A program made the translations under genes and the position numbers. From Gemmatimonadota bacterium (GTDB lineage Bacteria; Latescibacterota; UBA2968; UBA8231): DNA of 64,000 nt. Shown here piece by piece: positions 6,126-44,452 of this stretch; positions within the stretch are counted from its first letter, which is position 1, and each line of letters opens with the position of its first letter. A model generated the notes under the pieces. The model searched no databases and was not told where the DNA came from. It saw only the letters and a list, made by a program, of their open reading frames with translations. The stretch spans positions 24,156 to 88,155 of the forward strand of contig JABHFS010000001.1 in assembly GCA_018672475.1 (NCBI GenBank). Direction: 5' to 3'.

Positions 6126-7895
6126 ATGAGAATGAGCCGGCTTTTTAGCCAGACCTTGCGCGATATAACCGCCGACGCCGAAGTGGCGAGCCACCAGCTA
6201 TTGTTGAGGGCGGGTTTTATCCGTCAATTGGCCAGCGGGATCTTTAGCTATTTACCGCTAGGGCATAAAGCCCTACGCAAGGTAGAGGAGATTATCCGCC
6301 GGGAGATGGACGCGATCGGGGGGCAGGAGATCACGATGCCCGTGGTACACCCGGCCGAAATTTGGCAACAGACCGGTCGCTGGTACGAGGTCGGCTCGGA
6401 GATGAGTCGTTTTAAGGATAAGAACGACCGCGATATGGTCCTGGCGATGACGCATGAGGAAGTCGTCGCCGACCTAGTCAGCCGCGAGATTCATTCCTAC
6501 AAGCAATTGCCCCAGTTGGTTTATCAGATCCAGACGAAATGGCGCGATGATCCTCGGCCCCGTTCCGGCCTTATCCGGGTCCGCGAGTTCACGATGAAGG
6601 ACTCCTATAGCCTCGACGCTGATTGGGAAGGCTTAGACAAGCAGTACCGGGTCCACTATCAGAGCTATTTCAATATTTTCAACCGCTGTGGCCTCGATGT
6701 GATCGCGGTCAGTTCCGATACCGGGATGATGGGCGGCGAGATGGCGCACGAGTATATGTATTTGACGCCGATCGGCGAAGATACTTTGCTGCTATGTGAT
6801 GGCTGCGGTTATGCCGCAAATCGCCAGATTGCGACCTTCGCCAAAAAAGCTAATCCGAAAGAAGAGCCCGCTGTACAGGAGAAGATCGCCACGCCGGGTA
6901 CGGCGACCATCGATGATTTGGCCAGGTTGCTCGACATGCCCGCCAGTAAGACTGCCAAGGCGGTGTTTATGATGGCGACCGTCGGCAAGGGCGAGGAGAA
7001 GGAAGACAAGTTTATCCTAGCCGTTGTGCGCGGTGATATGGAGGTCAACGAGACCAAATTGGCCAATGCCGTTGGTGCGTTAGAGATGTGGCCGGCGAAT
7101 GAGGCGGAGATTCGCGCGGTTGGCTCGGAGCCGGGGTATGGTTCGCCGATCGGGGTCAAGGGGGCGCTGATTATCGTCGATGACGCGGTGGCCTCAGCGA
7201 CTAATTTGGTCGCCGGTGCCAATGAGCCGGGTTTTCACGTCAAAAATGTGAATTGTGGCCGGGATTACGAGGCCGAGCAAATCGTCGATATCGCCTCGGC
7301 ACGCGAGGGGGACGGTTGCCCGCGCTGCGAGGCAGCGCTAAGGGCGGTACGCGGAGTTGAGACGGGCAATATCTTCCAGCTCGGCACCAAGTTTACCGAG
7401 GCGCTGGGTGGGAATTTTCTCGACGCCAATGGCAAGGCGCAGTCGGTAGTGATGGGTTCGTACGGGATCGGCGTCGGGCGGATGTTGGCCTGTATCGCTG
7501 AGGAATACAACGACGACAACGGGCTGGTCTGGCCGATTACGGTCGCACCCTTCCAGGTGCATATCGTATTATTGGCCAAGGGCGAAGGCGAGGCGCAGGA
7601 CGTGGCGGAAAAACTCTATGGTGAATTGACAGGGCGCGGGCTCGATGTGCTCCTGGACGATCGCAAAGATAACCCGGGCGTCAAATTCAAGGACGCCGAT
7701 CTTATCGGCATACCGGTGCGGGTGACGGTCGGCGACCGCGGTTTGAAAAACGGGATCGTCGAGTTCAAGTTGCGCCGGGAAGAGCAGCGGCTGGAGATAC
7801 CGGTCGAAGATGCGTTTGAGCACGTCGTCGCGGCGGTCGAAGGTTTGTATAATGAGCTGGAAGAGCGGGTCGTCGAAGTCGAATACGAAAAATAA
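6126..7895 (+). CDS. proS: Proline--tRNA ligase (with editing insertion)
   Basis: MRMSRLF start after AGGAGAGG SD; SHQLLLRAG, RPRSGLIRVREFTMKDSYS, GSYGIGVGR, DADLIGIP. Confidence 0.97.
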   Translation: MRMSRLFSQTLRDITADAEVASHQLLLRAGFIRQLASGIFSYLPLGHKALRKVEEIIRREMDAIGGQEITMPVVHPAEIWQQTGRWYEVGSEMSRFKDKNDRDMVLAMTHEEVVADLVSREIHSYKQLPQLVYQIQTKWRDDPRPRSGLIRVREFTMKDSYSLDADWEGLDKQYRVHYQSYFNIFNRCGLDVIAVSSDTGMMGGEMAHEYMYLTPIGEDTLLLCDGCGYAANRQIATFAKKANPKEEPAVQEKIATPGTATIDDLARLLDMPASKTAKAVFMMATVGKGEEKEDKFILAVVRGDMEVNETKLANAVGALEMWPANEAEIRAVGSEPGYGSPIGVKGALIIVDDAVASATNLVAGANEPGFHVKNVNCGRDYEAEQIVDIASAREGDGCPRCEAALRAVRGVETGNIFQLGTKFTEALGGNFLDANGKAQSVVMGSYGIGVGRMLACIAEEYNDDNGLVWPITVAPFQVHIVLLAKGEGEAQDVAEKLYGELTGRGLDVLLDDRKDNPGVKFKDADLIGIPVRVTVGDRGLKNGIVEFKLRREEQRLEIPVEDAFEHVVAAVEGLYNELEERVVEVEYEK

Positions 7896-7908
7896 GCGGG
7901 GTTGGCCG

Positions 7909-9255
7909 ATGGAAACGATACAATCGCTATTTGTCGAAGGGTATGCGGACCAAGTCAGCTACAAAGCAGGGGATACCGCGCGCTTTCACGTTTCGACCAG
8001 CGCAGAATCGTATGCGTTGGAGATTGCGCGTATCGGTGCCGAACGCGAGGTCGTCTGGCAACAAGACGGATTGTCGGCGGCGGTGTACTCGGTGCCCGAA
8101 GACGCCTCTTCGCACGGTTGCAATTGGCCGGTTTCTTGTGAGTTGGCAATACCTGCCGACTGGCAGAGCGGCTATTACGAACTCGTGTTCCGCGCCGAGG
8201 ACCGAGGTGGTAAGTTTACCCAGCGCGGTCGCCGCACGGTCGAAAGCCAGGGCCTTTTTATCGTACGGCCGTCGGGGTCGATCAATAAAAAGATTCTTCT
8301 GCAATTGGCCACCAACACTTACGCCGCCTATAACAACTGGGGTGGATATGGCCTCTATGGTTATCACGGTCGCGGCGGTTTGCAGGGGCATCGCGTCTCT
8401 TTCGATCGGCCGATGGAAGGGTTATTTGATCGCTGGGAACGCGATTTCGTCGCTTGGGTCGAAGCGGCGGGTTATGCCATAGACTACTGTGCCAATTCCG
8501 ATCTCGAATTTTATCCTGAGCTATTGGACAATTATAGTTTAGTGCTGAGTGTTGGGCACGATGAGTATTGGTCGGGGCCGATGCGCGATTCTCTCGAAGC
8601 CCGTATCGCCGGTGGGGGGAATGCCGCTTTTTTTAGCGGCAATTCCGTCTGCTGGCAGGTCCGTAGCGAGGAGGCGGGGCGGGCGCTTACTTGCTGGAAG
8701 CAGCTCTTCAATATGGACCCAGCGTACGCGGCAGGTGATTATGCGAATCTGTCTACCTTGTGGAGTCACCATTTGCTCGACCGGCCCGAAAACCAATTGA
8801 CCGGTGTTGGTTTTCTCTATGGGGGCTATCATTTGAGCCACGGGCAATATATGGATGGCTCAGGCGCTTTTGAGGTGCATAGACCTGAGCATTGGGTTTT
8901 TGCAGGTACGGGTTTAAAACAGGGCGAGGAATTTGGCGGGGAGCATACGGTTGTCGGTTATGAGTGCGACGGCTGTGAGTTTACGATGGAAGGCGGGTTG
9001 CCGGTGCCAGTAGGTAGTCATGGGACGCCGAAGGATTTCACTATTCTGTCAACGGGATCGGCGCGCTGGCACCCCGATGACAGCGTATGGTATGAGCGCT
9101 GGGAGAACGGCCGGGAAGGCGCGGCGGTGATGGGGGTTTATACAAGAGGCGGCACGGTGTTCACGGCGGGGACGACGGATTGGCCGCACGGGCTTAAAGG
9201 CGACGAGCAGGTCGTGCGCATCACGCGGAACGTGCTGGACCGTTTGGGGCAGTAG
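7909..9255 (+). CDS. N,N-dimethylformamidase beta-subunit-like protein
   Basis: TYAAYNNWGG, VSFDRP, SVGHDEYWS, FFSGN, VGYECD, GGTVFTAGTTDW. Confidence 0.8.
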   Translation: METIQSLFVEGYADQVSYKAGDTARFHVSTSAESYALEIARIGAEREVVWQQDGLSAAVYSVPEDASSHGCNWPVSCELAIPADWQSGYYELVFRAEDRGGKFTQRGRRTVESQGLFIVRPSGSINKKILLQLATNTYAAYNNWGGYGLYGYHGRGGLQGHRVSFDRPMEGLFDRWERDFVAWVEAAGYAIDYCANSDLEFYPELLDNYSLVLSVGHDEYWSGPMRDSLEARIAGGGNAAFFSGNSVCWQVRSEEAGRALTCWKQLFNMDPAYAAGDYANLSTLWSHHLLDRPENQLTGVGFLYGGYHLSHGQYMDGSGAFEVHRPEHWVFAGTGLKQGEEFGGEHTVVGYECDGCEFTMEGGLPVPVGSHGTPKDFTILSTGSARWHPDDSVWYERWENGREGAAVMGVYTRGGTVFTAGTTDWPHGLKGDEQVVRITRNVLDRLGQ

Positions 9256-33389: not shown

Positions 33390-33418
33390 TTTACAAGGAC
33401 ATAGGCGTTTGTTATAAT
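33390..33418 (+). promoter_or_regulatory. Near-consensus sigma70 promoter of the lepB-proteasome operon
   Basis: TTTACA-N17-TATAAT with an extended -10 TG. Confidence 0.75.
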
Positions 33419-33447
33419 ATTTGGAAGCCTTTTATTTGAGGAGAAAA

Positions 33448-34152
33448 ATGAATAGTACCAGCAAAAAATCGGGTATCGGCGAATATGTGTCCTCGATTCT
33501 GATCGCTATTGGTTTAGCCCTGTTGATTCGCACTGGAGTCGTCCAGGCCTTCTATATTCCTTCGGGATCGATGGAAGATACGCTCCTGGTCGGCGACTAT
33601 CTTTTGGCCAATAAGTTTATCTACGGCGCGCCCATCGATGTGCCGCTGACCAATATTTCCCTCTTTCGCCTGCCCGCGATTAGAGATCCTGAGCCGGGAG
33701 ATATCGTTATTTTTCGCTCGCCGGTGGATGAGGACCGCGATTTGATCAAACGCTGTGTCGCGATTGGGGGGCAAGAGATACGAATCGTCAATAAAGTGCT
33801 CTATATTGACGGCGCGCCTTTCCAAGACCCGCCTTTGGCCAAATATGTCGATCGGACCTTCTACCCGGCGATGGCCAATCCCAGGGACAATTTTGGCCCT
33901 TATACCGTGCCTGCGGATCATTTTTTTATGATGGGCGATAATCGCGACAATAGCGCCGATAGTCGATATTGGCGGGCGGTGCCGAAAGAATTGATTAAGG
34001 GCAAGGCGATGAGCATATATTGGTCTTGGGCGCCGGATACCCGTGGGCCTTATTACACCGACTTGAGTTCATTGCCGAAGGTGGCGGCGAGCTTTGCCTG
34101 GCGTCTGCCCGGCCGAGTGCGTTACGAGCGCCTCGGCGATGTGATTCACTAA
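33448..34152 (+). CDS. lepB: Signal peptidase I
   Basis: IPSGSM (catalytic Ser), IKRC (Lys), MMGDNRDNSADSRYW; GAGGAG SD. Confidence 0.95.
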   Translation: MNSTSKKSGIGEYVSSILIAIGLALLIRTGVVQAFYIPSGSMEDTLLVGDYLLANKFIYGAPIDVPLTNISLFRLPAIRDPEPGDIVIFRSPVDEDRDLIKRCVAIGGQEIRIVNKVLYIDGAPFQDPPLAKYVDRTFYPAMANPRDNFGPYTVPADHFFMMGDNRDNSADSRYWRAVPKELIKGKAMSIYWSWAPDTRGPYYTDLSSLPKVAASFAWRLPGRVRYERLGDVIH

Positions 34153-34164
34153 GCGGAGGATGCG

Positions 34165-35877
34165 ATGAACCGCAGGAATTCGCGCGACGATTACGACGAC
34201 GGTTTAGACGGTGCGAGCGAGTCGGAGGAGCAGACCGAGGACGAACCGTTGCGATTGGTCGATGAACTGCTCGCACTGGCCCCGGATCGCGATTCGGGCC
34301 GGCCGTTGCTCTACCAACTCAGACGCCAACTGATGGATCGCGAAATATCGTACCAGGAGGCCCGGCGGGTGGCTGTGGAGCTCGAAACGGCTCTTGAGAA
34401 AGTGACCGCCCCCGCGAACCGCGTCGGCATTTTCTTGGGGATGCCGAGCGAGGGGATCGCCACGGTCTATGTTGGCGGATCCGAATACTATACTAATATC
34501 GATCCGCGCGTTGAAGCCGCCGAGCTCAAGGTTGGTTGCCGGGTCTTGGTCAATGAGGCGTATGCGGTCGTTGGCGATTTGGGTTATAGCCCTTCTGGCC
34601 CGGTGGCCAAAATTGGCGATTTACTCGAGGGGGGCCGGTTGCGCATCGCGCAGGCGCATGGGGCCCAAGAGATGATCCTGGAGCGCTCGGCGGATCTGGC
34701 TGATGTCAATCTGCAGGTGGGCGACGAAGTGCGGATGGATCCGGCTTTCAAGGTCGCGTTGGAACTTTTGCAGACAACGGGCAGCAAGGAATATTTCATC
34801 GAGGATGTTCCGCCGACCCCATGGGAGAGCATTGGCGGGCAGGAGGAGGCGATCCAGGCGATTCGCGATACCATCGAGTTGCCGGCGTTGCATCCAGAGC
34901 TTTTCAAGCGCTTCGAATATTCGACCCCCAAGGGTTTCCTGCTCTATGGCCCTCCGGGTTGCGGCAAGACCCTGATCGGCAAAGCCACCGCCTACAATTT
35001 GGTGCAGCACATGCGCGAGGAGGAAGGGCTCGAGCTAGAAGAATACTTCATGCACATCAAAGGGCCGGAGATTCTCAATATGTGGCTCGGCGAGACCGAG
35101 CGGATGGTACGGGAGATCTTTGCCCAAGCCCGCCAGAAGCGCAAAGAAGGTTATCTGCCCTTTATCTTTATCGACGAGGCCGAGTCGATTTTGGGCACCC
35201 GGCGTTCTATGCGTAGCCACAATATTTCCAATACCGTCGTGCCGATGTTTTGCACCGAGATGGACGGCATTGAGTCGCTGCACGACGTGGTGCTGGTCTT
35301 GGCGTCGAATCGCCACGACCTGATCGACCCGGCGATTCTCCGCCCCGGCCGCATTGACCGCAAGATTAAGGTCGCCCGTCCAAACTATGAGGCTGCACGC
35401 GATATCTTGGGGATCTATATCAAAGCCGAATTGCCGATCGATCGCGAGGAGATCAAACAGCACGGTGGCGTAGAAGAAGCGCGGGCGGCGTTGGTCCAGG
35501 CGGGTTTGGACGAGCTATTCGCTAAGAGCGATGAGGCTCGTTTTTTGGAGGTCTCTTTGCGCAGCGGGCGGCAAGAAGTGCTTTATCGCGGCGACCTGAC
35601 TTCGGGGGCGATTATCGCTTCGGTGGTGTCGAGGGCCAAGGAAATGGCCATCAAGCGGGCCATCGCCAACAACGACCCCGATGGCGGCATCTGCAGCGAA
35701 GATTTGCGGCTGGCGGCGCGGGCCGAATACCGCGAGAACGAGGTGTTCCCGCCCTCCGACAGCGTCGAAGACTGGCTCAAATTACTCGATTACGAGCCCG
35801 AGAACGTAGTGAAGGTTATGCCGGTCAAGCCCCAAACGGAAAAGGCGCCCGAGCCGCGTTCGGGTCGGGTGATCTGA
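34165..35877 (+). CDS. arc: Proteasome-associated AAA ATPase (ARC/Mpa)
   Basis: N-terminal coiled coil and OB region; GPPGCGKT, IKGPEILN, FIDEAE, RRSMRSHNISNTVVP, DPAILRPGRID, SGAII; operon context. Confidence 0.93.
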   Translation: MNRRNSRDDYDDGLDGASESEEQTEDEPLRLVDELLALAPDRDSGRPLLYQLRRQLMDREISYQEARRVAVELETALEKVTAPANRVGIFLGMPSEGIATVYVGGSEYYTNIDPRVEAAELKVGCRVLVNEAYAVVGDLGYSPSGPVAKIGDLLEGGRLRIAQAHGAQEMILERSADLADVNLQVGDEVRMDPAFKVALELLQTTGSKEYFIEDVPPTPWESIGGQEEAIQAIRDTIELPALHPELFKRFEYSTPKGFLLYGPPGCGKTLIGKATAYNLVQHMREEEGLELEEYFMHIKGPEILNMWLGETERMVREIFAQARQKRKEGYLPFIFIDEAESILGTRRSMRSHNISNTVVPMFCTEMDGIESLHDVVLVLASNRHDLIDPAILRPGRIDRKIKVARPNYEAARDILGIYIKAELPIDREEIKQHGGVEEARAALVQAGLDELFAKSDEARFLEVSLRSGRQEVLYRGDLTSGAIIASVVSRAKEMAIKRAIANNDPDGGICSEDLRLAARAEYRENEVFPPSDSVEDWLKLLDYEPENVVKVMPVKPQTEKAPEPRSGRVI

Positions 35878-35884
35878 CGGGCTT

Positions 35885-37441
35885 ATGCGGCGAATCTGTG
35901 GGGTAGAAACCGAATACGGAATACAGGTGGACGGGGTCGATAATATGGACGTGGTGGTGGAGTCCATGGAATTGATCCGCTGTTACCTGCATCAGGACTT
36001 CGTCGCGATATGGAACTACGCGCTGGAGAACCCGCGTTTGGATATGCGCGGCTTCGAAGTTGACGAGCTGCGCAACGACGTTGACGAGACGCTGCACCTG
36101 CAGAAGGACCGCCAGCGCCAGATCCCGCTCAAAGACCTCAAGAGCGACCTGATTATCCACAATGGCGCCCGTCTTTACAATGACCATACCCATCCCGAAT
36201 TTTCGACCCCCGAATGTTATGGTCTACACGACCTAGTGGCCGTCGACCGCGCTGGCGAGCAGATCTTGCTGCAATGTGCCAAAGAGCGCACGGCAACGCG
36301 CGGCGAGGGCGTTGTTCGGCTCTATAAGAACAATACTGACTTCGAAGGGCACAGCTACGGTTGCCACGAGAATTTCCTGCTCAGCCGGGAGATTCCCTTC
36401 CAGCAGGTGATTGACGGACTGCTGCCCTTCGTAGTGACGCGGCAGATTTTCGCCGGGGCCGGCAAGGTCGGTGTTGAACAGGACAGCAGAGCCAGCGCTG
36501 CGACTTATCAGTTGGCCCAGCGCGCTGATTTTTTTGAGGTCATCGCCAGCGTCGATACGATGCATCGCCGGCCGTTGGTTAACACCCGTGACGAACCGCA
36601 TGCCGACGCCGACCGCTATCGTCGCCTCCATCTGATCATCGGCGACGCAAATATGTGCGAATACGCGACCGCGCTGAAGGTCGGCAGTGCGGCTTTGGCG
36701 ATCGATCTGCTGGAAGCCGGCGAACTGCCTACTTGTGAATTGGCCGATCCGATCGGTGCGCTCAAGGAGATTTCCCGCGATGAGTCCCGGCACTGGACCG
36801 TGGTCTTGGCTGCGGGGAGAACCAGTTCGGCTTTGGAAATTCAGACCGATATCATGATGGCGGCCCAGCGGCTTTTTAAAGGGCGCGATAAGGAGACCGA
36901 CTGGATCCTTGACGAATGGCGCGGCACGCTGGAGGCCTTGGCGCGAGATCCGCAAGAGCTGATCGGACGTCTCGATTGGGTGACCAAAAAGTGGCTATTG
37001 GATGCATTCGCAGAGTCGGAGGGACTCGACTGGGAAAAACCCGCGGATCGCACTTGGCTGCAGAGTCAGGATCTCGAATATCACAATATCGACCCGGCCG
37101 AAGGCCTTTATTCTATGCTGGAGCAGCAAGGCCAGGTAGAACGCCTAGTCACCGAGGAGGACGTGCTCAGGGCCATGGTCGATCCGCCACGGGATACCCG
37201 GGCGTACTTTCGCGGCAAAACGTTGCAGAAATTCTCCAACGAAGTGCGTTCGCTTAACTGGGACAGCATCGAATTTTCCGTTGGAGGCGGTAGCCGAGTC
37301 GTCGATCTCAAGGGTTGTGTAGACGAGCAGACGGCAGCTTATTACAATGAAGCCTTAGACGCTGCGACAAGCGTTGAGGATCTGTTGCAAAGACTGGCGG
37401 TTGCTTCCGGGCAGCCACCCGAAACAGGAGGTGCCCAATGA
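35885..37441 (+). CDS. dop: Pup/UBact deamidase-depupylase
   Basis: RRICGVETEYGI, WNYALENPRLDMRG (Dop-type insertion), NGARLYNDHTHPEFSTPE, KNNTD..GHSYGCHEN, NTRDEPHAD, DLEYH. Confidence 0.9.
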   Translation: MRRICGVETEYGIQVDGVDNMDVVVESMELIRCYLHQDFVAIWNYALENPRLDMRGFEVDELRNDVDETLHLQKDRQRQIPLKDLKSDLIIHNGARLYNDHTHPEFSTPECYGLHDLVAVDRAGEQILLQCAKERTATRGEGVVRLYKNNTDFEGHSYGCHENFLLSREIPFQQVIDGLLPFVVTRQIFAGAGKVGVEQDSRASAATYQLAQRADFFEVIASVDTMHRRPLVNTRDEPHADADRYRRLHLIIGDANMCEYATALKVGSAALAIDLLEAGELPTCELADPIGALKEISRDESRHWTVVLAAGRTSSALEIQTDIMMAAQRLFKGRDKETDWILDEWRGTLEALARDPQELIGRLDWVTKKWLLDAFAESEGLDWEKPADRTWLQSQDLEYHNIDPAEGLYSMLEQQGQVERLVTEEDVLRAMVDPPRDTRAYFRGKTLQKFSNEVRSLNWDSIEFSVGGGSRVVDLKGCVDEQTAAYYNEALDAATSVEDLLQRLAVASGQPPETGGAQ

Positions 37442-37629
37442 GCGATTTTATTGATTACAGGGATCGCGCGCCCCGGCCGACCAAACCGATCGATGATGGC
37501 GGTGGGGAGTCGGATGAAGGGCCGCGCCGGCCCAAAGTCGAGAAACCCAGCACCGACGATATTTTAAAGCGAATGAAGAAAGTCGACCCCAATCAAGCGC
37601 GGCGCTATCGCCAGCGTACGGGGCAGTAA
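37438..37629 (+). CDS. ubact: Ubiquitin-like protein UBact (Pup analogue)
   Basis: 63 aa, charged and disorder-prone; ILKRMKKVDPNQARRYRQRTGQ matches the UBact R[S/T]G[E/Q] C-terminus; AGGAGG SD; located between dop and prcB. Confidence 0.92.
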   Translation: MSDFIDYRDRAPRPTKPIDDGGGESDEGPRRPKVEKPSTDDILKRMKKVDPNQARRYRQRTGQ

Positions 37630-37635
37630 CTGCGC

Positions 37636-38391
37636 ATGGAGAGCTGCGATTTTCTCGGCTTGCTCAAGGAAGGTGGGCATTTGTCAGCCGCACCGGGCAT
37701 GGTTCAAGAAGGGCTACTCGAGCAGGTCGAGGGTACGACTATTATGGCCGTGCGCTACGCCGACGGGGTCTTGGTTGCCGGCGACCGCCGGGCGACGATG
37801 GGCAACTTGGTGGTCTATGACCGGGCCGATAAGGTCTTGAGCATCGACGACGACACGGTTATGGCGATCGCCGGGTCGCCGTCGGTCGCCTATGATATCG
37901 CCCGAATGTTGGAGATGTCGGTGCAGTACTATCGCCGGAGTCAGTTGCAGCGGTTGAGCCTCGACGGCAAGTTGCGCACGCTCTCGCGACTGTTGCGCCA
38001 GAACTTGCCGATGGCGATCCAGGGGATCGGTGCGGTGGTGCCGATCTACGCGGCCTATGACCAGGACGCCGGTGAGAGCAAGATTTTCTTTTACGACCTC
38101 CTGGGCGCCGAGTTCGAATGCGTCGATTTCTGCACCACGGGGTCGGGTTCGAACATTATCCGCGGTGCGCTCTACTACCAGAATCGCTGGGGCACGCCGC
38201 TCGCGGAGATGGCGGAGGAACAGGCAGTGGAGACGGTGCTCAAGATGCTAGAGACTGCTGCCGAATACGATACCGCCACCGGCGGATTTCGCGAGACGGC
38301 GCGAATTTTCCCTCAGATTATGAAAGTCACGGCCGCCGGGCTGAACAAGGTGTCCGAAGACGAAATGGCCGCACTCTACGAGAAGGCTTAG
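37636..38391 (+). CDS. prcB: 20S proteasome beta subunit
   Basis: 33-aa propeptide ending EG|TT; Thr1, Asp17 (GDRRAT), Lys33; TGSGS; DTATGG. Confidence 0.93.
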   Translation: MESCDFLGLLKEGGHLSAAPGMVQEGLLEQVEGTTIMAVRYADGVLVAGDRRATMGNLVVYDRADKVLSIDDDTVMAIAGSPSVAYDIARMLEMSVQYYRRSQLQRLSLDGKLRTLSRLLRQNLPMAIQGIGAVVPIYAAYDQDAGESKIFFYDLLGAEFECVDFCTTGSGSNIIRGALYYQNRWGTPLAEMAEEQAVETVLKMLETAAEYDTATGGFRETARIFPQIMKVTAAGLNKVSEDEMAALYEKA

Positions 38392-38395
38392 GGAT

Positions 38396-39151
38396 ATGCT
38401 GGAAGAACCTTATCGCTGGGTTGAGGCGATCAACAACCGCCGCGAATATCTGGAGGACCAACTCTCGGCCGGCAGTCCGGTGGTGGGCATGACCTATGCG
38501 GGGGGGGTGCTGTTGCTGACGACCACCCCGGGGCCGCGCAAGCTCTTTGAAATCTACAATGAGATCGCCTTTGCCGCTGTCGGGCACCCCGCTGACATAG
38601 AAAAGTTGCGCAAGGCGGTTATCGATATTGCCCATATCGAAGGTTTTAATCTCTCCGCCCGCGATGTGACCTTACAGCGCCTGGTAAGTTTCGGTATAGG
38701 CCCGCTGATGAAGGCGGCCTTCGATGAGATCTTCCGTTCGCCCTTTATCGCCCGAGTGATGATGGCCGAGTTAGACCCGGTTGAGGGCGGGGATGTCTTC
38801 TATACTATCGACGCAGATGGCTCCTTCGCGCAGGGCGGCCGAGTGGCGGCTATCAGCGGCAGCGAAAAAAGCGCCCGGGCGATGACGGCGAAGCTCGGGG
38901 AAGTCGATGGGGCGTTGCCGCTCCAAGAAGCTTTGGGTGCGGCGTTACAGGTCTGGGGATTGGGGCGGTTGGTGCTCGATTCTGAGGAGGGGCAAGAACC
39001 GAGTGAGAGTGATGTGCGTGAATTCTTAAAGGACGGTTTGCAGGGGCTGAAGGTCGAGGCCGCCGTGTTGGACCGTGAACGAAGTGTCAAATCGAAGTTC
39101 AACCTGCTGACCGAAGATGAGCTTCCTTTGGCCGCCTACATCGGGGCATAG
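38396..39151 (+). CDS. prcA: 20S proteasome alpha subunit
   Basis: GSPVVG, KLFEIYNEIAFAAVG..ADIE.LR, C-terminal EAAVLDR; operon position. Confidence 0.9.
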   Translation: MLEEPYRWVEAINNRREYLEDQLSAGSPVVGMTYAGGVLLLTTTPGPRKLFEIYNEIAFAAVGHPADIEKLRKAVIDIAHIEGFNLSARDVTLQRLVSFGIGPLMKAAFDEIFRSPFIARVMMAELDPVEGGDVFYTIDADGSFAQGGRVAAISGSEKSARAMTAKLGEVDGALPLQEALGAALQVWGLGRLVLDSEEGQEPSESDVREFLKDGLQGLKVEAAVLDRERSVKSKFNLLTEDELPLAAYIGA

Positions 39152-39154
39152 GCC

Positions 39155-40573
39155 ATGAAGGATCGAATTTACGGTATTGAAACGGAATTCGGCTGTCTGC
39201 CGCCGGACTCAGACCCCTTTCTAAGCCCCGATTTTATATCGGTGAAAACCAAAGACTGCGTGTTTTATCGCGAGGGCTTGGGGATCGTCGATATCCATTA
39301 TCGCGGGCGCGACGAGCCCCCGGGCAATGGCGGCTTTCTCTTTAATGGCGGCCGGCTCTATATCGACATGGGCCATGTTGAATACGCTACGCCCGAATGC
39401 AACGGCCTTTTTGACCTGGTCGCTTCCGATCGGGCGGGGGAATTGATGGTCCAACGCGCGCTAGAGGAACTGGATCTGGCCGAGACCGCTTCTTTCTTTA
39501 AGAATAATATCGACCATTACACCGGGGCGACTTTCGGCTGCCACGAGAACTATCTCGTGCGTCGCGATGTGCCTTTCTCGCAGGTGTTGCTGCCGGCGAT
39601 GTTGCCCTTCTTTGTCACCCGACAGATTTTCGCCGGCGCCGGCAGGGTGGGTTGTCACACAGATGCTTTCGAGCCCGGTAGCGCCGAGGACGAAGGCGTT
39701 TCCTTCCAGATCTCGCAGCGGGCTGATCACATTGTCACCGAGATCTACCAGTGGATCCAGTTCAGTCGCGCGATCATTAATACGCGCGATGAGCCCTTGG
39801 CCGACTGGGGTCTATATCGCCGTTTGCATTTGCTGGTCGGCGACTCGAATATGATGGAGTTCGCCACTGCGCTCAAAGTGGGTACTACGGGTTTGGTGCT
39901 ACAGCTTTTGGAAGAGGGCATTGTCCCCGAGATCAAACTGCTCGATCCGGTGCAGGCGATTCGCGATATTTCGCGAGATATGAGCTTCCGCTGGGAAATA
40001 CAATTGGAAGACGGCAGTTATACCACCGCCGCCGAAGTTCAGCGAGAGTATCTCGATTTGGCCGAGCGCTATTTGCGCGGCCAGGACGAGGAGGGCGATT
40101 GGGTCTTAGACGAGTGGCGTTTTGTGATTGACGGTTTGACTCACGATCCAGGGTCGTTGGTTGATCGAGTCGATTGGGTGGCTAAGAAGTGGCTCTTGGA
40201 GCGTTTTATGAAAGAAGAGGGCTTGGATTGGCACGATACCTGGGTCCAGAGTTTGGATTTGGAATATCACAATCTCAACGCTGAAAAAGGCCTCTATTTC
40301 GATCTCTATCGGCGCGGGCTGGTTAAACGTGTCGTCGACGATGAGCAAATCAACCAGGCCATAGCGAATCCACCCGCCAATACTCGCGCTAAAGCGCGTT
40401 CGCAGGTTATGCGGGCACTGGCGGGGCGGAAGGCGCGCTATGTGATCGATTGGGATTCCATTTATGTCGAAGATGAGAAATATCTCAACCTCGATGATCC
40501 CTTTCTTACCTACGAGCGAGAAGCCGACGATTTTATCCGCGAATGCGAGCAGCGCCCGGTCGAGGATATTTAG
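39155..40573 (+). CDS. pafA: Pup/UBact--protein ligase
   Basis: RIYGIETEFG, FLFNGGRLYIDMGHVEYATPEC, KNNID..GATFGCHENY, SQRADH, INTRDEP, RRLHLLVGDSNM, DLEYH. Confidence 0.92.
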   Translation: MKDRIYGIETEFGCLPPDSDPFLSPDFISVKTKDCVFYREGLGIVDIHYRGRDEPPGNGGFLFNGGRLYIDMGHVEYATPECNGLFDLVASDRAGELMVQRALEELDLAETASFFKNNIDHYTGATFGCHENYLVRRDVPFSQVLLPAMLPFFVTRQIFAGAGRVGCHTDAFEPGSAEDEGVSFQISQRADHIVTEIYQWIQFSRAIINTRDEPLADWGLYRRLHLLVGDSNMMEFATALKVGTTGLVLQLLEEGIVPEIKLLDPVQAIRDISRDMSFRWEIQLEDGSYTTAAEVQREYLDLAERYLRGQDEEGDWVLDEWRFVIDGLTHDPGSLVDRVDWVAKKWLLERFMKEEGLDWHDTWVQSLDLEYHNLNAEKGLYFDLYRRGLVKRVVDDEQINQAIANPPANTRAKARSQVMRALAGRKARYVIDWDSIYVEDEKYLNLDDPFLTYEREADDFIRECEQRPVEDI

Positions 40574-40649
40574 TTTTTGGCGATTGCCAATTTTTTGTTA
40601 TATTAATCAGTGTTGCAGTTAGTTAGACGGATCCCCCAAGGAGAAGTCC

Positions 40650-41096
40650 ATGTTACTTTCAACTGCGGCCACAGGTGTGTTCAGCGTACCACTCAAGGCC
40701 CGTCATCAGCGGCGTGTACCCTCTCAGGGGGTTGGTTTCAAAGACGGCCTAGGTATTTCGCCATTGCGTGCCACCAGTGGTCCACCCAGTATTTCTCAGA
40801 CGGCCCCTCGACGGACGGGCAGCCTCGTCAAACCGCCACAGGCGGGTGGTGGGGTATTGTCCAAGTTGCAGGGGGCGGTGCGTAGTACTAGCCCGCTGAC
40901 AGCCGGCGTGCGCATCGGTCATCGTTTCCAGGCTAAAACTGCCGGCGTGTTGCAAGCGCGCCAGTCGAGTCTTATCAGTTCGTTTCGCAAGATCGATCGC
41001 GGCAGTCGTTTGCTCCAGGCTAGTGCCAGTCCTTTCCGCCTGCAGGGTGGTTTTGGTGTCCAACTCGGTACGAGTAGTCTGAATTTGTTGGGTTAG
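40650..41096 (+). CDS. Hypothetical basic low-complexity protein
   Basis: AAGGAG SD; fills the gap before the M6 gene; almost no acidic residues. Confidence 0.55.
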   Translation: MLLSTAATGVFSVPLKARHQRRVPSQGVGFKDGLGISPLRATSGPPSISQTAPRRTGSLVKPPQAGGGVLSKLQGAVRSTSPLTAGVRIGHRFQAKTAGVLQARQSSLISSFRKIDRGSRLLQASASPFRLQGGFGVQLGTSSLNLLG

Positions 41097-41104
41097 CGGC
41101 CTCC

Positions 41105-44100
41105 ATGCCGCTGCGGTTTTACCCTTTTTTCTTTTTTCTTTTTTCTCCATTACATATATCAGCGGCGGAATTCGTTTGCGCCGTTGCTGCGCCATCTGCT
41201 AAGATCGGGCTGCAAGCTCCGGAAAGCTTGAGCGCATTGGTCCTCTTTGCGCAATTCCAGGATGAGGGTGCCGGGGAATCTGCGCCTTCATGGGCTGGAG
41301 ATCTTTTTACCGCGGACATGCCCGGCAGTTTCGCGCACTTTTATCGCTCGATGTCCGGTGGCCGATTAGCGGTCGAAGGACAGGTGCTGCCGCGACGGTA
41401 TCGCTCGTTACAGGGGGCGGATGCCTATCTGGCGGAGACGCCGGGGACTTTGGGCGGTTACGGGCGTTTCAATCGTGAAATCCTTGCTCTGGCCGACGGG
41501 GACATTGATCTGGGGCTGTTCGACAATGACGGTCCGGATGGAATGCCGAATTCGGGTGATGACGACGGCTATGTGGATATCGTCTTTATCAATTTGCATA
41601 CAGTGCCGCGCGATTTTTTTATCAGCACGGCGACCGGCATCGCCTCGCTGGGTTTAGACGCCGATTTTATCAGCGATGATCTGGCGGCAGATGGTGGTTT
41701 TGTGCGGGTGCGCAGCCGTTTCACCGGTTTTGGCGGCACGACACAGAGAGGGCATACCTTTAGCGTTACGGCCTCGACGATGTGCCACGAATTCGCGCAT
41801 GTATTGGGGCTGCCGGACCTTTTCGACCAGACCTCGGTTACGGCAGCGGGAGCGTTAGCTCCAGAGGAAGATTCGGCGGGTATCGGCAAGTGGGGGATTA
41901 TGGGGCTGGGGACTCTGGGGTGGGGTGTGGAAGATGGACCGAATGCCTTTTCTGCCTGGTCGTTGGCCGAGCTTGGGTGGGTTGAGGTGGTGGATCTGTT
42001 ACAGGACGTGCGGGGTCTGGAGATCGATGAGATTTTCAGCGGCCGGCGCATATACAAAATAGCGTTGACTGAAGACGAGTATTTTCTGCTTGAACACCGG
42101 CAGGCGGGGAGTTCTTATTACAATCGCAATATTCCCCAGGATGGGCTACTCATATGGCATGTCGACGAACGGGCGGACAACGACGAAGAGCGGCATAAGC
42201 AGGTCGACTTGGTCTGCGCCGACGGGCTTTTTGCCGATCGGGGATTTCCCGGAGCCGTCGAAGACCCGGTCGAGGGCGGTGATAATCTCGATTTTTGGTC
42301 GCGTGACGACGCTTATGCGCAAGTCCATAATGGTAACCAAGGGGATGCGACGGATCCTTTTGACGGGGTGCGTTTCGACCGTTTCGCCTGGGATACTAAT
42401 CCAACTTTTAGCGCTCATATGGGTTTCACGCGGAATTTACCCTTGGGGGTGGCGGTGGAGAATATCCGTCGGCGCGGCGCGGTGATGCTCGTCGATGTAG
42501 TTCGACTGGAGTTGCCCGGACATATTGCGAATAATACAAGGTGGTCGGGGCGAGTGGATCTCGACGCGGACATTGTCGTAGAGCCGGGCGCGAAATTGAC
42601 CATCGCGGCCGATACTCAAGTGCGCTTTGCCCGCGGTGACAAACGGGGTTCGGGGTTTGACCCGGATCGCGGTGAATTGATCGTTTACGGGGATCTCGAG
42701 GTTGGATCGGGGGTTAGCTTTGCCTCAAGCGCGGCGCGCACGGGGGCATTGGATTGGTCGGGTATTTACTTGCTCGACGGTCAGGCCGCGAATTTCGCGG
42801 CGATACCGCTTGAAAACGCCCATCGTGGTCTGGTGCGCTATCGGTTGCCGCAGGGACAGACGCAGTGGACCGACGATCAGGAAATACACGCTGATCTATT
42901 GGTTCCCGCAGGGGCTGAATTGAGGATCGGTCCGGGGGTACTGGCTTTTTTTGATAGGATTGATCGCAGTCAGCGCGGTATCTCGCCGAGTCTCGTCGAA
43001 CTCGTCGTTGAGGGGGTATTGACGATCGAGGGTGAGGCGGGGAACTTGGCGCGGTTGACGACCGACCCGGGGCTGGACAACGATGGTCTCTGGTACGGTA
43101 TTCGCGTAATGCCCGGAGCTCAGGTTGACGTGCGTTATGCGCAATTGGACCGGGCTGGTTTCGGTTTCAGTGGCGAAGTCGACAAGAATACAGGTTTGCG
43201 CATCGCGGATACTGTTGTGCGTGAAAATGGCGGCAATGGATTGCGTTTGACTCTCAACGGCGAGGCGCAAATCGACCGCAGTCTGTTCACGGTTATCACC
43301 GGTGCGGCTTTGCGCCTGGATGGCAGTGGCTTGCTGCGCTTACGCAATTCGCGGGTTGAGGGTAATGGCCAGGAGGGGATTCTGCTCAACAACGCCTCAT
43401 TGGAAGCGATCCGCGTTGTGGTGACGAACAATGGTCTGCTCGATCCGGAGGACCCGCGTTCGGGGGTGCGGGCGGTCGGGGGCAGCGGCCAAAAGATTGA
43501 GATATGGGCCTCGGAGATTGAGCGGAGCACGCAGCACGGCTTGGACTTAGAGGAGTGGTTGGGTGAGGTGGAACTGCACGATAGCCGTATCGGCGCCAAC
43601 CAGCGCGACGGTTTGCGCGCAATGGGCGTAGAACGTCTGGTGTTCGAGCAGGTGCTCGTGGAGCGCAACTTACGCGGTGGGGCGGTGGTTGCGGGTTCGC
43701 CGGTGGAGATCTGGACTTCTACGTTTAGCGCGAATATCGGCGCGGGGCTGCACTTGGGACCAGGGTCCACAGGCGCTATTGAAATGAGCAAATTCCGCGG
43801 CGGGCGGGGATTGCAGTTACAGGGAGTGGCGCAATTGTCGATGCGCGAAAACGATTTTGTCAACGCGACCTTGGGGCTCTCCTCCGACGATTCGACACCG
43901 AGTATCCGCCTTAATCGCTTTACCGGTAATGCCACCGCGATTCGCGTCGAGGGGCAACGGGTACCGGAGGAAATTCGCGGCAATGTCTTTACTGACAATG
44001 CGACCGCGCTTGAAAACCGGAGCGCGGCGAGGTTGGACGCGAAAGATAATTACTGGGGCACGGCTGATAGTTCGGCGATTGCCAGGCAGATCAAAGGCGC

Positions 44101-44452
44101 GGTAGAATGGGCACCCTTTCTGCCCGAAGAGGGGGCGGTCGTGACAGTGGCATCGGAGGTGGGTGCCCTGCCTGCCAATTTTGCGCTCTATCCCGCTTAT
44201 CCGAATCCCTTTAATGCACAGGTCACCTTGTCGTTTGATTTACCACGGTCGACGGCGGTCGAGCTGGTCCTTTATGACGCATTGGGGCGGCCGGTGCGCC
44301 GTCTCGTCGGCGGGGCGCTGGAAGCCGGCGCCTATCGCTTGGATTGGGACGGGCGCGATGAGAGGGGCAAACGGGTCGCTTCGGGGATTTATTTTATTCG
44401 GCTGGTGGCCGGGTCTTTTGCCGAGACGGGCCGAATTGCCCTAGTGCGTTGA
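41105..44452 (+). CDS. Secreted M6 (immune inhibitor A-like) metalloprotease with beta-helix and C-terminal sorting/FlgD-Ig domain
   Basis: Signal peptide; HEFAHVLGLPD; WGIMG Met-turn; GLLIWH; NYWG; YPNPFN..WDG..VASGIY. Confidence 0.88.
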   Translation: MPLRFYPFFFFLFSPLHISAAEFVCAVAAPSAKIGLQAPESLSALVLFAQFQDEGAGESAPSWAGDLFTADMPGSFAHFYRSMSGGRLAVEGQVLPRRYRSLQGADAYLAETPGTLGGYGRFNREILALADGDIDLGLFDNDGPDGMPNSGDDDGYVDIVFINLHTVPRDFFISTATGIASLGLDADFISDDLAADGGFVRVRSRFTGFGGTTQRGHTFSVTASTMCHEFAHVLGLPDLFDQTSVTAAGALAPEEDSAGIGKWGIMGLGTLGWGVEDGPNAFSAWSLAELGWVEVVDLLQDVRGLEIDEIFSGRRIYKIALTEDEYFLLEHRQAGSSYYNRNIPQDGLLIWHVDERADNDEERHKQVDLVCADGLFADRGFPGAVEDPVEGGDNLDFWSRDDAYAQVHNGNQGDATDPFDGVRFDRFAWDTNPTFSAHMGFTRNLPLGVAVENIRRRGAVMLVDVVRLELPGHIANNTRWSGRVDLDADIVVEPGAKLTIAADTQVRFARGDKRGSGFDPDRGELIVYGDLEVGSGVSFASSAARTGALDWSGIYLLDGQAANFAAIPLENAHRGLVRYRLPQGQTQWTDDQEIHADLLVPAGAELRIGPGVLAFFDRIDRSQRGISPSLVELVVEGVLTIEGEAGNLARLTTDPGLDNDGLWYGIRVMPGAQVDVRYAQLDRAGFGFSGEVDKNTGLRIADTVVRENGGNGLRLTLNGEAQIDRSLFTVITGAALRLDGSGLLRLRNSRVEGNGQEGILLNNASLEAIRVVVTNNGLLDPEDPRSGVRAVGGSGQKIEIWASEIERSTQHGLDLEEWLGEVELHDSRIGANQRDGLRAMGVERLVFEQVLVERNLRGGAVVAGSPVEIWTSTFSANIGAGLHLGPGSTGAIEMSKFRGGRGLQLQGVAQLSMRENDFVNATLGLSSDDSTPSIRLNRFTGNATAIRVEGQRVPEEIRGNVFTDNATALENRSAARLDAKDNYWGTADSSAIARQIKGAVEWAPFLPEEGAVVTVASEVGALPANFALYPAYPNPFNAQVTLSFDLPRSTAVELVLYDALGRPVRRLVGGALEAGAYRLDWDGRDERGKRVASGIYFIRLVAGSFAETGRIALVR

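Follow-up and report, generated by a model that had tools for sequence, protein, structure and literature searches.

A UBact-proteasome operon, probably Pup-like in mechanism, in the genome of an uncultured marine Latescibacterota bacterium

Pup, the tag of the actinobacterial Pup-proteasome system, ends in Gly-Gly-Gln or Gly-Gly-Glu, the terminal residue varying between Gln and Glu. The UBact-proteasome operon is the Gram-negative counterpart of that system. The UBact family, which marks the canonical locus of Gram-negative phyla, was reportedly named by Lehmann, Udasin, Livneh and Ciechanover in 2017 (BBRC 483:946), who are said to list Candidatus Handelsmanbacteria among its hosts. Iyer, Burroughs and Aravind (2008; PMC2588565) grouped tags of 50-90 residues, those of Nitrospirae and Methylacidiphilum included, with Pup by a C-terminal G[EQ] signature and described two PafA paralogs beside such tags. 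Here we analyze a six-gene locus of this kind, arc-dop-ubact-prcB-prcA-pafA-like, in a 64,000-nucleotide stretch of DNA (the window) from the metagenome-assembled genome (MAG) of an uncultured marine Latescibacterota bacterium. The window comprises positions 24156-88155 of its contig, in a 6.62-Mb assembly of 210 contigs that is 92.13% complete and 4.6% contaminated.

The locus consists of six plus-strand open reading frames (ORFs) between 34165 and 40573, with spacings of 7, -4, 6, 4 and 3 nt (see the feature table below); the -4 nt spacing is an ATGA overlap at the dop/UBact junction. An earlier reading of the window from its letters alone (the sequence-only reading) had described a contiguous six-gene locus with gaps of at most 7 nt, and the ORFs were recovered at exactly the same coordinates. 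Model searches that it had proposed returned matches for UBact, Pup_ligase and Proteasome and none for Pup. The locus resembles the UBact locus of Gram-negative phyla in its tag family, in the R-T-G-[Q/E] end of the tag and in the order mpa/arc-dop-ubact-prcB-prcA-pafA, which is also that of a Nitrospiraceae MAG; no substantive difference was found, the host here being a marine Latescibacterota MAG. In a MAG titled Candidatus Handelsmanbacteria (L038), the same operon encodes a Dop that is 70% identical. The locus also fits the description of non-actinobacterial "Pup orthologs" (Nitrospirae, Methylacidiphilum, Plesiocystis, Rhodopirellula) in Iyer et al. 2008 (PMC2588565). Unlike the Plesiocystis/Rhodopirellula variant outlined there, with membrane-inserted ligases unlinked to the proteasome, both enzymes here are of the soluble type and proteasome-linked.

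With the actinobacterial Pup system the locus shares Pup_ligase enzymes (528 and 469 bits), an Mpa-like ATPase with a double OB domain, a beta subunit with Thr1, and a disordered tag whose last two residues are Gly-Gln or Gly-Glu, each found in the lineage; in a predicted complex this tag also occupies the groove of the ligase, its C-terminal end reaching the active site. It differs from that system in several respects. UBact has no detectable sequence similarity to Pup and ends in TG[QE] rather than GG[QE], none of the five enzymes reaches its equivalog cut-off, and at the discriminating positions the ligase-like paralog falls between Dop and PafA. In addition, Arc ends in Val-Ile rather than GQYL, pafA comes immediately after prcA, and a gene for signal peptidase stands ahead of arc. 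Our analysis indicates that the locus is very probably a complete, canonical UBact-proteasome operon working by a Pup-like mechanism, the mechanism being assigned by homology.

Conservation of the locus was assessed in named species genomes, where a scan with the Dop-type protein gave 387 relatives; counts of related loci below refer to the best 80 of these (L014-L093). All six genes were present in 67 of the 80 loci, with the same order and strand in all 67; contig ends truncate the remaining 13, which agree in what they retain. Nearly all of the 80 belong to Candidatus Latescibacterota MAGs, with a few labelled Gemmatimonadota, Handelsmanbacteria or Planctomycetota. The most distant is that of the Nitrospiraceae MAG (L093), in which Dop is 52% identical and the gene order is unchanged. 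Across the phylum, the UBact model scored above its cut-off in 128 of 168 genomes. By family, the counts were 69/75, 3/3, 22/22 and 31/31 in the window's class; one further family had the tag in 2/2 genomes, and nine families had none. Within the phylum's main class the UBact operon is near-universal. One Latescibacterota chromosome carries an insert of about 1.9 kb between dop and UBact (L034:7530-9434), with a 400-aa ORF (7581-8783) that matches no Pfam family.

The tag ORF scored above the cut-offs of both curated UBact models, PF20513 (74.5 bits; cut-off 27.8) and NF033388 ubiq_like_UBact (79.7 bits; cut-off 35). The Pfam Pup model (PF05639) gave no match to the protein at E<=10 and none genome-wide at E<=0.001, a search in which the control C. 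glutamicum does match, and the UBact profile matched no chain in the PDB, Pup chains included, at E<=10. The genome has one UBact gene and no Pup match. With the UBact cut-offs passed and the Pup model silent for protein and genome alike, the assignment of the tag to UBact and not to Pup, made earlier from the letters, is confirmed. The protein ends RYRQRTGQ; the broader G[EQ] signature is present in its final T-G-Q, and Gly-Gly is absent. The accompanying statement that the tag has no GGE or GGQ holds at the C-terminus and fails within the protein, where GGGE occupies residues 21-24.

In an alignment of 27 UBact proteins, 19 positions are invariant; the N-terminal half varies, and the final 25 residues hardly change. 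Conservation of the small ORF, raised as a question by the sequence-only reading, is evident: it lies between dop and prcB in 77 of the 80 related loci, and the remaining three are cut. The final residue is Gln in 44 of the 77 and Glu in 33 (RTGQ or RTGE). A Dop-type gene is present in both Gln- and Glu-ending loci and is kept wherever the locus reaches it, a pattern that fits a deamidase that also de-conjugates. In another genome (G038), a second UBact-like frame (L002:1488-1910; 53.9 bits) directly follows a normal UBact that ends RTGE. This frame ends ...RRYRQRDGGVN, without a terminal Gln or Glu, and could be either a duplicate in decay or a tag requiring trimming. Genomes G066 and G109 have two UBact matches each.

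The locus is represented in RNA libraries. Parts of the stretch were found in 20 RNA runs from 17 studies, all of them marine or seawater metatranscriptomes, and 8 of these runs contain at least half of its words. Four runs, each from a different study, yielded contigs that match at 95% or better, 54 of the 60 reaching at least 99%; in each run they fill 28-30 of the 30 bins between 33000 and 41500. Single contigs extend across the 3′ end of dop, the whole UBact ORF and the 5′ end of prcB in runs X1, X4 and X5, which come from three studies. The sole variant within UBact in these contigs is 37536 A>G, a synonymous change at the third position of Lys33.

These data bear on whether the 63-codon ORF could be a chance frame or an untranslated spacer, which would leave the operon tag-less. 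The ORF is short, and peptide evidence is not to hand, but the idea deserves virtually no credence. The two curated models, from two libraries, match at E-values of 1e-21 to 1e-22, and 0 of 14 control genomes gave a match; the recurrence of the ORF at one place in the related loci goes with conservation at the protein level around a variable N-terminal half; and a Shine-Dalgarno sequence (GGAGG) stands 7-8 nt ahead of the ATG of a frame whose only variant in the RNA libraries is synonymous. By these sequence criteria the tag is a genuine gene, more than a chance ORF.

The first of the two Pup-ligase-family proteins has the features of Dop. Among NCBIfam models it scored 452.2 bits with Dop (TIGR03688; equivalog cut-off 492.3, not reached) vs. 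368.7 with PafA, 83 bits apart. Against the PDB it aligned end to end with Dop at 387 bits, the Dop-loop region included, and with PafA at 258 bits; the loop of solved Dop is matched by residues 36-92, which share its W..ENP..D.RGFEV motif. Hecht et al. 2020 list residues that discriminate Dop from PafA (their Table 1; PMC7947786), the Dop-specific ones including His after the catalytic Asp and Ser and Pro after Glu-Tyr/Phe. At positions in that list the first paralog has the residues of Dop, namely Ser27, Asp100-His101, Ser107 and Pro109. The GhExE motif reads GVETE at residues 6-10 of the Dop-type protein and GIETE at residues 7-11 of the PafA-like one, and the residues aligned to the catalytic Asp of solved Dop are D100 and D71, respectively. 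Intact catalytic motifs had been noted earlier for both proteins, as for PrcB (Thr1/Asp17/Lys33), and all of these were recovered. An AlphaFold2 model of the Dop-type protein had a predicted local distance difference test score (pLDDT) of 82.3; its alpha-loop is mostly coil at pLDDT 60-72 and was given no weight.

The second paralog is harder to classify. Its NCBIfam scores were 369.9 bits with PafA (TIGR03686; cut-off 551.3, not reached) vs. 360 with Dop. It lacks the Dop loop, alignments with Dop beginning at its own residue 57-61 and at Dop residue 81-84. Relative to Hecht et al. (PMC7947786), the residues Ala-Thr-Pro after Glu-Tyr correspond to the PafA, PafA and Dop states (the third Ala being replaced by Pro), and the PafA-like His192 and Ser204 of the alpha-loop are retained; the PafA-specific Trp, Glu, Gly and Ser-Ser-Ala of their Table 1 are absent. 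Judged by these residues, the second paralog falls between PafA and Dop at sites shown by Hecht et al. (PMC7947786) to switch activity. The loop-less form, the Ala-Thr pair and the alpha-loop His and Ser are invariant or nearly so in 22 aligned relatives, the Nitrospiraceae one included. A homologue search with the PafA-like protein returned only close relatives at 81-100% identity, under the NCBI name "PafA2 family protein", and so supplied no outgroup.

There are two Pup-ligase-family genes in the genome, both in this operon, and the second paralog is therefore the only candidate ligase. Its ligase role is argued from its features and by elimination rather than from orthology, because the trees described below give no supported placement. 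The earlier naming of the last gene as PafA is too firm for a protein that is below the PafA cut-off and whose orthology to PafA the trees do not settle.

A complex of the second paralog with UBact residues 20-63 was also predicted. The interface score (ipSAE) was 0.83 (0.83, 0.83 and 0.84 in separate runs) vs. 0.02 for the best of three controls. The ipSAE mark applied is reached by 116 of 157 solved complexes and by 2 of 215 mismatched pairs, a calibration that is rough here, as our own alignments were used. The runs share at least 95% of their contacts, with a partner pLDDT of at least 64, and the predicted contacts of UBact residues 39-63 include E11, D71-H74 and helices 347-383 of the second paralog. 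The score may reflect likeness to solved PafA-Pup and Dop-Pup complexes rather than binding by this copy. An AlphaFold2 model of the PafA-like protein itself (22 rows) was set aside: its mean pLDDT was 64.2, with values below 50 over residues 160-231, and it cannot tell an alpha-loop helix, as in PafA, from a loop, as in Dop.

The remaining genes encode an ATPase and the two subunits of a 20S proteasome. Arc scored 451.4 bits with TIGR03689 pup_AAA (cut-off 504.75, not reached). Its best PDB matches were to Mpa, at 327-332 bits, with Arc residues 62-552 aligned to Mpa residues 76-585 through the OB, AAA and C-terminal domains; the coiled coil, double OB and AAA layout of Mpa/ARC is present. 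Walker A is at G262-T269, Walker B at D337-E338, and an aromatic-hydrophobic-Gly pore loop at M306-W-L-G309. In PrcB, a 33-residue propeptide ends at Gly33, and by direct counting Thr34, Asp50 and Lys66 correspond to Thr1, Asp17 and Lys33. PrcB scored 177.7 bits with TIGR03690 20S_bact_beta (cut-off 191.9, not reached) and PrcA 74.4 bits with TIGR03691 20S_bact_alpha (cut-off 139.05, not reached); both pass the PF00227 cut-off of 22.4 bits, at 105.2 and 31.5 bits. Elsewhere in the genome there is a third, weak match to the Proteasome family (25.5 bits; G000:C101:5070-5579, within the minus-strand frame L098:1261-2019). This 252-aa ORF matches no NCBIfam family and so is not recognised as HslV.

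Taken together, these features suggest the following pathway. The Dop-type enzyme would convert the C-terminal Gln63 of UBact to Glu and would also strip the tag from proteins. The paralog without the Dop loop would use ATP to phosphorylate the gamma-carboxylate of that Glu and then join the tag to lysine side chains. The N-terminal coiled coil of the Arc hexamer would capture the disordered tag, and the substrate would be unfolded and fed to the PrcA/PrcB 20S particle, in which removal of the 33-residue propeptide of PrcB would expose Thr1. The mechanism proposed in the sequence-only reading is the best reading of the locus, as one that we infer.

Several observations weigh against this interpretation and are considered together here. 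All five enzymes score below NCBIfam equivalog cut-offs, which were trained on actinobacteria. Compared with solved structures, the second paralog scored higher with Dop than with PafA (290 vs. 256 bits). Beside its catalytic Asp it reads Asp71-Met-Gly-His, with a hydrophobic residue and Gly as in PafA and without an inserted residue, where Table 1 of Hecht et al. gives Asp-Val-Gly-Ser for PafA, with Leu also listed around the catalytic Asp (PMC7947786). It also lacks two alpha-loop threonines that are otherwise common to both enzymes and whose mutation slowed M. smegmatis PafA (PMC7947786).

The trees add to these points. For the second paralog, an exhaustive search of 1.84 billion representatives gave 5856 relatives at E<=0.001. 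From the best 150 of these, 120 of 430-620 aa were retained and 95 were scored by NCBIfam; 21 of the 95 rows were dropped (split or partial matches, insertion-like lengths), and the 74 kept include 7 that exceed the cut-off for PafA and 15 that exceed the one for Dop. Together with the window's two proteins and pairs from five loci these made a set of 86 rows, from which a 37-row subset was taken for a careful tree. In a quick tree of the 86 rows, all Dop-type rows, operon Dops included, fell on one side of a branch with a support of 97 in the Shimodaira-Hasegawa-like approximate likelihood ratio test (SH-aLRT). The same all-Dop split had a support of only 76/54 in the 37-row tree. That tree resolved five groups at 97-100, namely cut-off Dop, operon Dop, operon PafA-like, cut-off PafA with near-PafA, and one small group, with no supported branching order among them (a star). 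The operon PafA-like rows form a lineage of their own (support 99-100), and their link to the rows above the PafA cut-off is without support. In an approximately unbiased (AU) test on the 37 rows, a tree joining both UBact-operon paralogs was not rejected (p 0.564), its log-likelihood being 1.93 above that of the quick free tree. Hecht et al. report well-supported Dop and PafA clusters, Nitrospirae included (PMC7947786), a resolution that was not reproduced with the present rows.

One explanation for these observations would be a division of labor that differs from that of the Pup system, the loop-less paralog acting as a second hydrolase or as a bifunctional or regulatory protein, and ligation falling to the Dop-type enzyme or to a promiscuous activity of an ancestral kind. 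The higher score with Dop structures, the near-tie between the NCBIfam models, the missing PafA insertion and alpha-loop threonines, and the lack of firm support for deep Dop/PafA branching all speak for it, as does the promiscuous ancestor argued for by Hecht et al. (PMC7947786). Even so, we regard it as quite improbable. The near-invariance of the loop-less form, the Ala-Thr pair and the alpha-loop His and Ser in the 22 relatives indicates a conserved, distinct function; the first paralog has the Dop-specific Asp-His and the Dop loop; and the system needs a ligase, for which the genome offers only two family members. The pafA-like gene also follows prcA, the relative order that is said to hold in actinobacterial loci.

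The C-terminus of Arc raises a separate question. It reads ...SGRVI, not GQYL, and among related Arc proteins the tail ends in a Val/Ile pair in 76 of 79 (the exceptions being AI, SV and TV), with a penultimate Tyr in 0 of 79. Mpa needs a C-terminal GQYL to open the 20S gate (PMC8142254). For a tail without GQYL, the argument for Arc-20S coupling therefore comes only from the tight and conserved gene linkage. It could be proposed that tagging is real and not coupled to the proteasome through Arc docking of the mycobacterial type, UBact being mainly a regulatory or reversible modifier, or Arc a stand-alone unfoldase. The Val-Ile or Ile-Val tails, none with the Tyr of the GQYL/HbYX motif required in Mpa, favor such a proposal, which we nevertheless consider distinctly unlikely: the six genes are translationally close-packed and keep one order in all 67 complete loci, in at least two phyla, and both the length and the hydrophobic end of the Arc tail are conserved, suggesting that it has its own type of docking role.

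A further reading takes the tree and the Arc tail together. Rather than the actinobacterial pathway simply transferred, the Latescibacterota and Nitrospirota UBact systems might have a hydrolase/ligase pair that arose from one gene independently of the actinobacterial Dop/PafA split, or too early for true orthology, and their Arc might use a conserved Val-Ile tail to dock to the 20S particle in a mode other than GQYL/HbYX. We offer this tentatively, as unlikely. An independent or early split is kept in consideration because the AU test retains the joined-paralog tree and the five groups form a star. If true, an independent split would be a case of convergent sub-functionalisation of a ubiquitin-like tagging pathway.

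Two further points count on the same side as those above. Literature on UBact, on proteasomes of Latescibacteria and on pupylation outside Actinobacteria, the founding paper not being among the works consulted, yielded no bench work on UBact conjugation, substrates or degradation; the earlier description of UBact chemistry as poorly characterised agrees with the finding of no experimental UBact study in the literature searched. In addition, the RNA-library contigs do not prove transcription, as they carry no information on strand, ends or level, and DNA can occur in such libraries. With all of these points weighed, a canonical UBact-proteasome operon with a Pup-like mechanism is still the interpretation that we favor.

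Features of the UBact-proteasome locus and its surroundings (positions in the window)
Feature	Positions	Strand	Remarks
Signal peptidase I (lepB-like)	33421-34152	+	Pfam Peptidase_S26 162 bits; TIGR02227 151.2 bits (cut-off 47)
arc/mpa-type proteasomal AAA ATPase	34165-35877	+	570 aa; Pfam AAA and Prot_ATP_ID_OB_N/_C
Dop-type deamidase/de-conjugase (predicted)	35885-37441	+	518 aa; Pup_ligase 527.9 bits
UBact, ubiquitin-like tag	37438-37629	+	63 aa, ends RTGQ; PF20513 and NF033388
prcB, 20S proteasome beta subunit	37636-38391	+	251 aa; Pfam Proteasome 105.2 bits
prcA, 20S proteasome alpha subunit	38396-39151	+	251 aa; Pfam Proteasome 31.5 bits
pafA-like, second Pup-ligase-family enzyme, presumed UBact ligase	39155-40573	+	472 aa; Pup_ligase 469.1 bits
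Candidate sigma-70-like promoter, upstream of lepB	33390-33418	+	TTTACA-17-TATAAT; consensus match only
Terminator-like hairpin and T-run	40577-40597	+	TTGGCGATTGCCAA then TTTTTTG; consensus match only

The lepB-like gene lies 12 nt upstream of arc in the same orientation and is probably co-transcribed with it; the junction between the two is bridged by RNA-library contigs in X1, X4 and X7. A lepB-type signal peptidase I gene is found ahead of arc in 48 of the 80 related loci; the linkage of signal peptidase and proteasome operon is lineage-limited. The candidate promoter upstream has 11 of 12 consensus matches and a TG extension. Because its -10 box ends 3 nt before the TTG start of the longest ORF, the true start of lepB is probably further downstream. 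At the other end, the terminator-like hairpin stands 4 nt 3′ of the pafA-like stop, and contigs run past the last gene and across the hairpin in X1, X4 and X5. As consensus matches, the promoter-like site and the hairpin would bound a seven-gene unit. Rfam gave no match at its gathering scores between 33000 and 45000, nor at E<=1 between 40400 and 41300.

A 148-codon ORF rich in Ser, Gly, Arg and Leu (40650-41096, plus strand) begins 76 nt past the operon and was found in 11 of the 80 loci. It matches no Pfam, NCBIfam or Rfam family. An RNA-library contig over 40422-40962 had a depth of 94.6 vs. about 10 for the operon contigs (run X7). The odd composition and this deep contig led to an RNA gene being considered for 40650-41096, an idea that the codon-phase pattern of substitutions disfavors: in comparisons with L014, L016 and L017, substitutions peak at the third codon position, and the ORF is probably coding. 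The next gene (41105-44452, plus strand) encodes a protein of 1115 aa that matches M6 peptidase weakly and has beta-helix/NosD repeats together with a C-terminus of the FlgD_ig/Por_Secre_tail type. By these domain matches it looks like a secreted protease sorted by the type IX secretion system, and in several of the more distant loci its relatives are encoded ahead of arc.

The genome as a whole has 8 matches to the Omp85 family, in keeping with a diderm cell. LpxC gave no match, which at 92% completeness does not show that it is absent; the gene may be unassembled, or else the outer membrane is without classical lipid A.

The locus is real, of an already known kind and ordinary for its lineage: UBact has curated Pfam and NCBIfam models, and relatives are annotated publicly. 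As a locus it adds little; it is compact, is present in marine RNA libraries, and would suit reconstitution as well as any other. Two points may be of interest to specialists in this family, a ligase-like paralog that appears to stand between Dop and PafA, and an Arc tail without the motif needed by mycobacterial Mpa.

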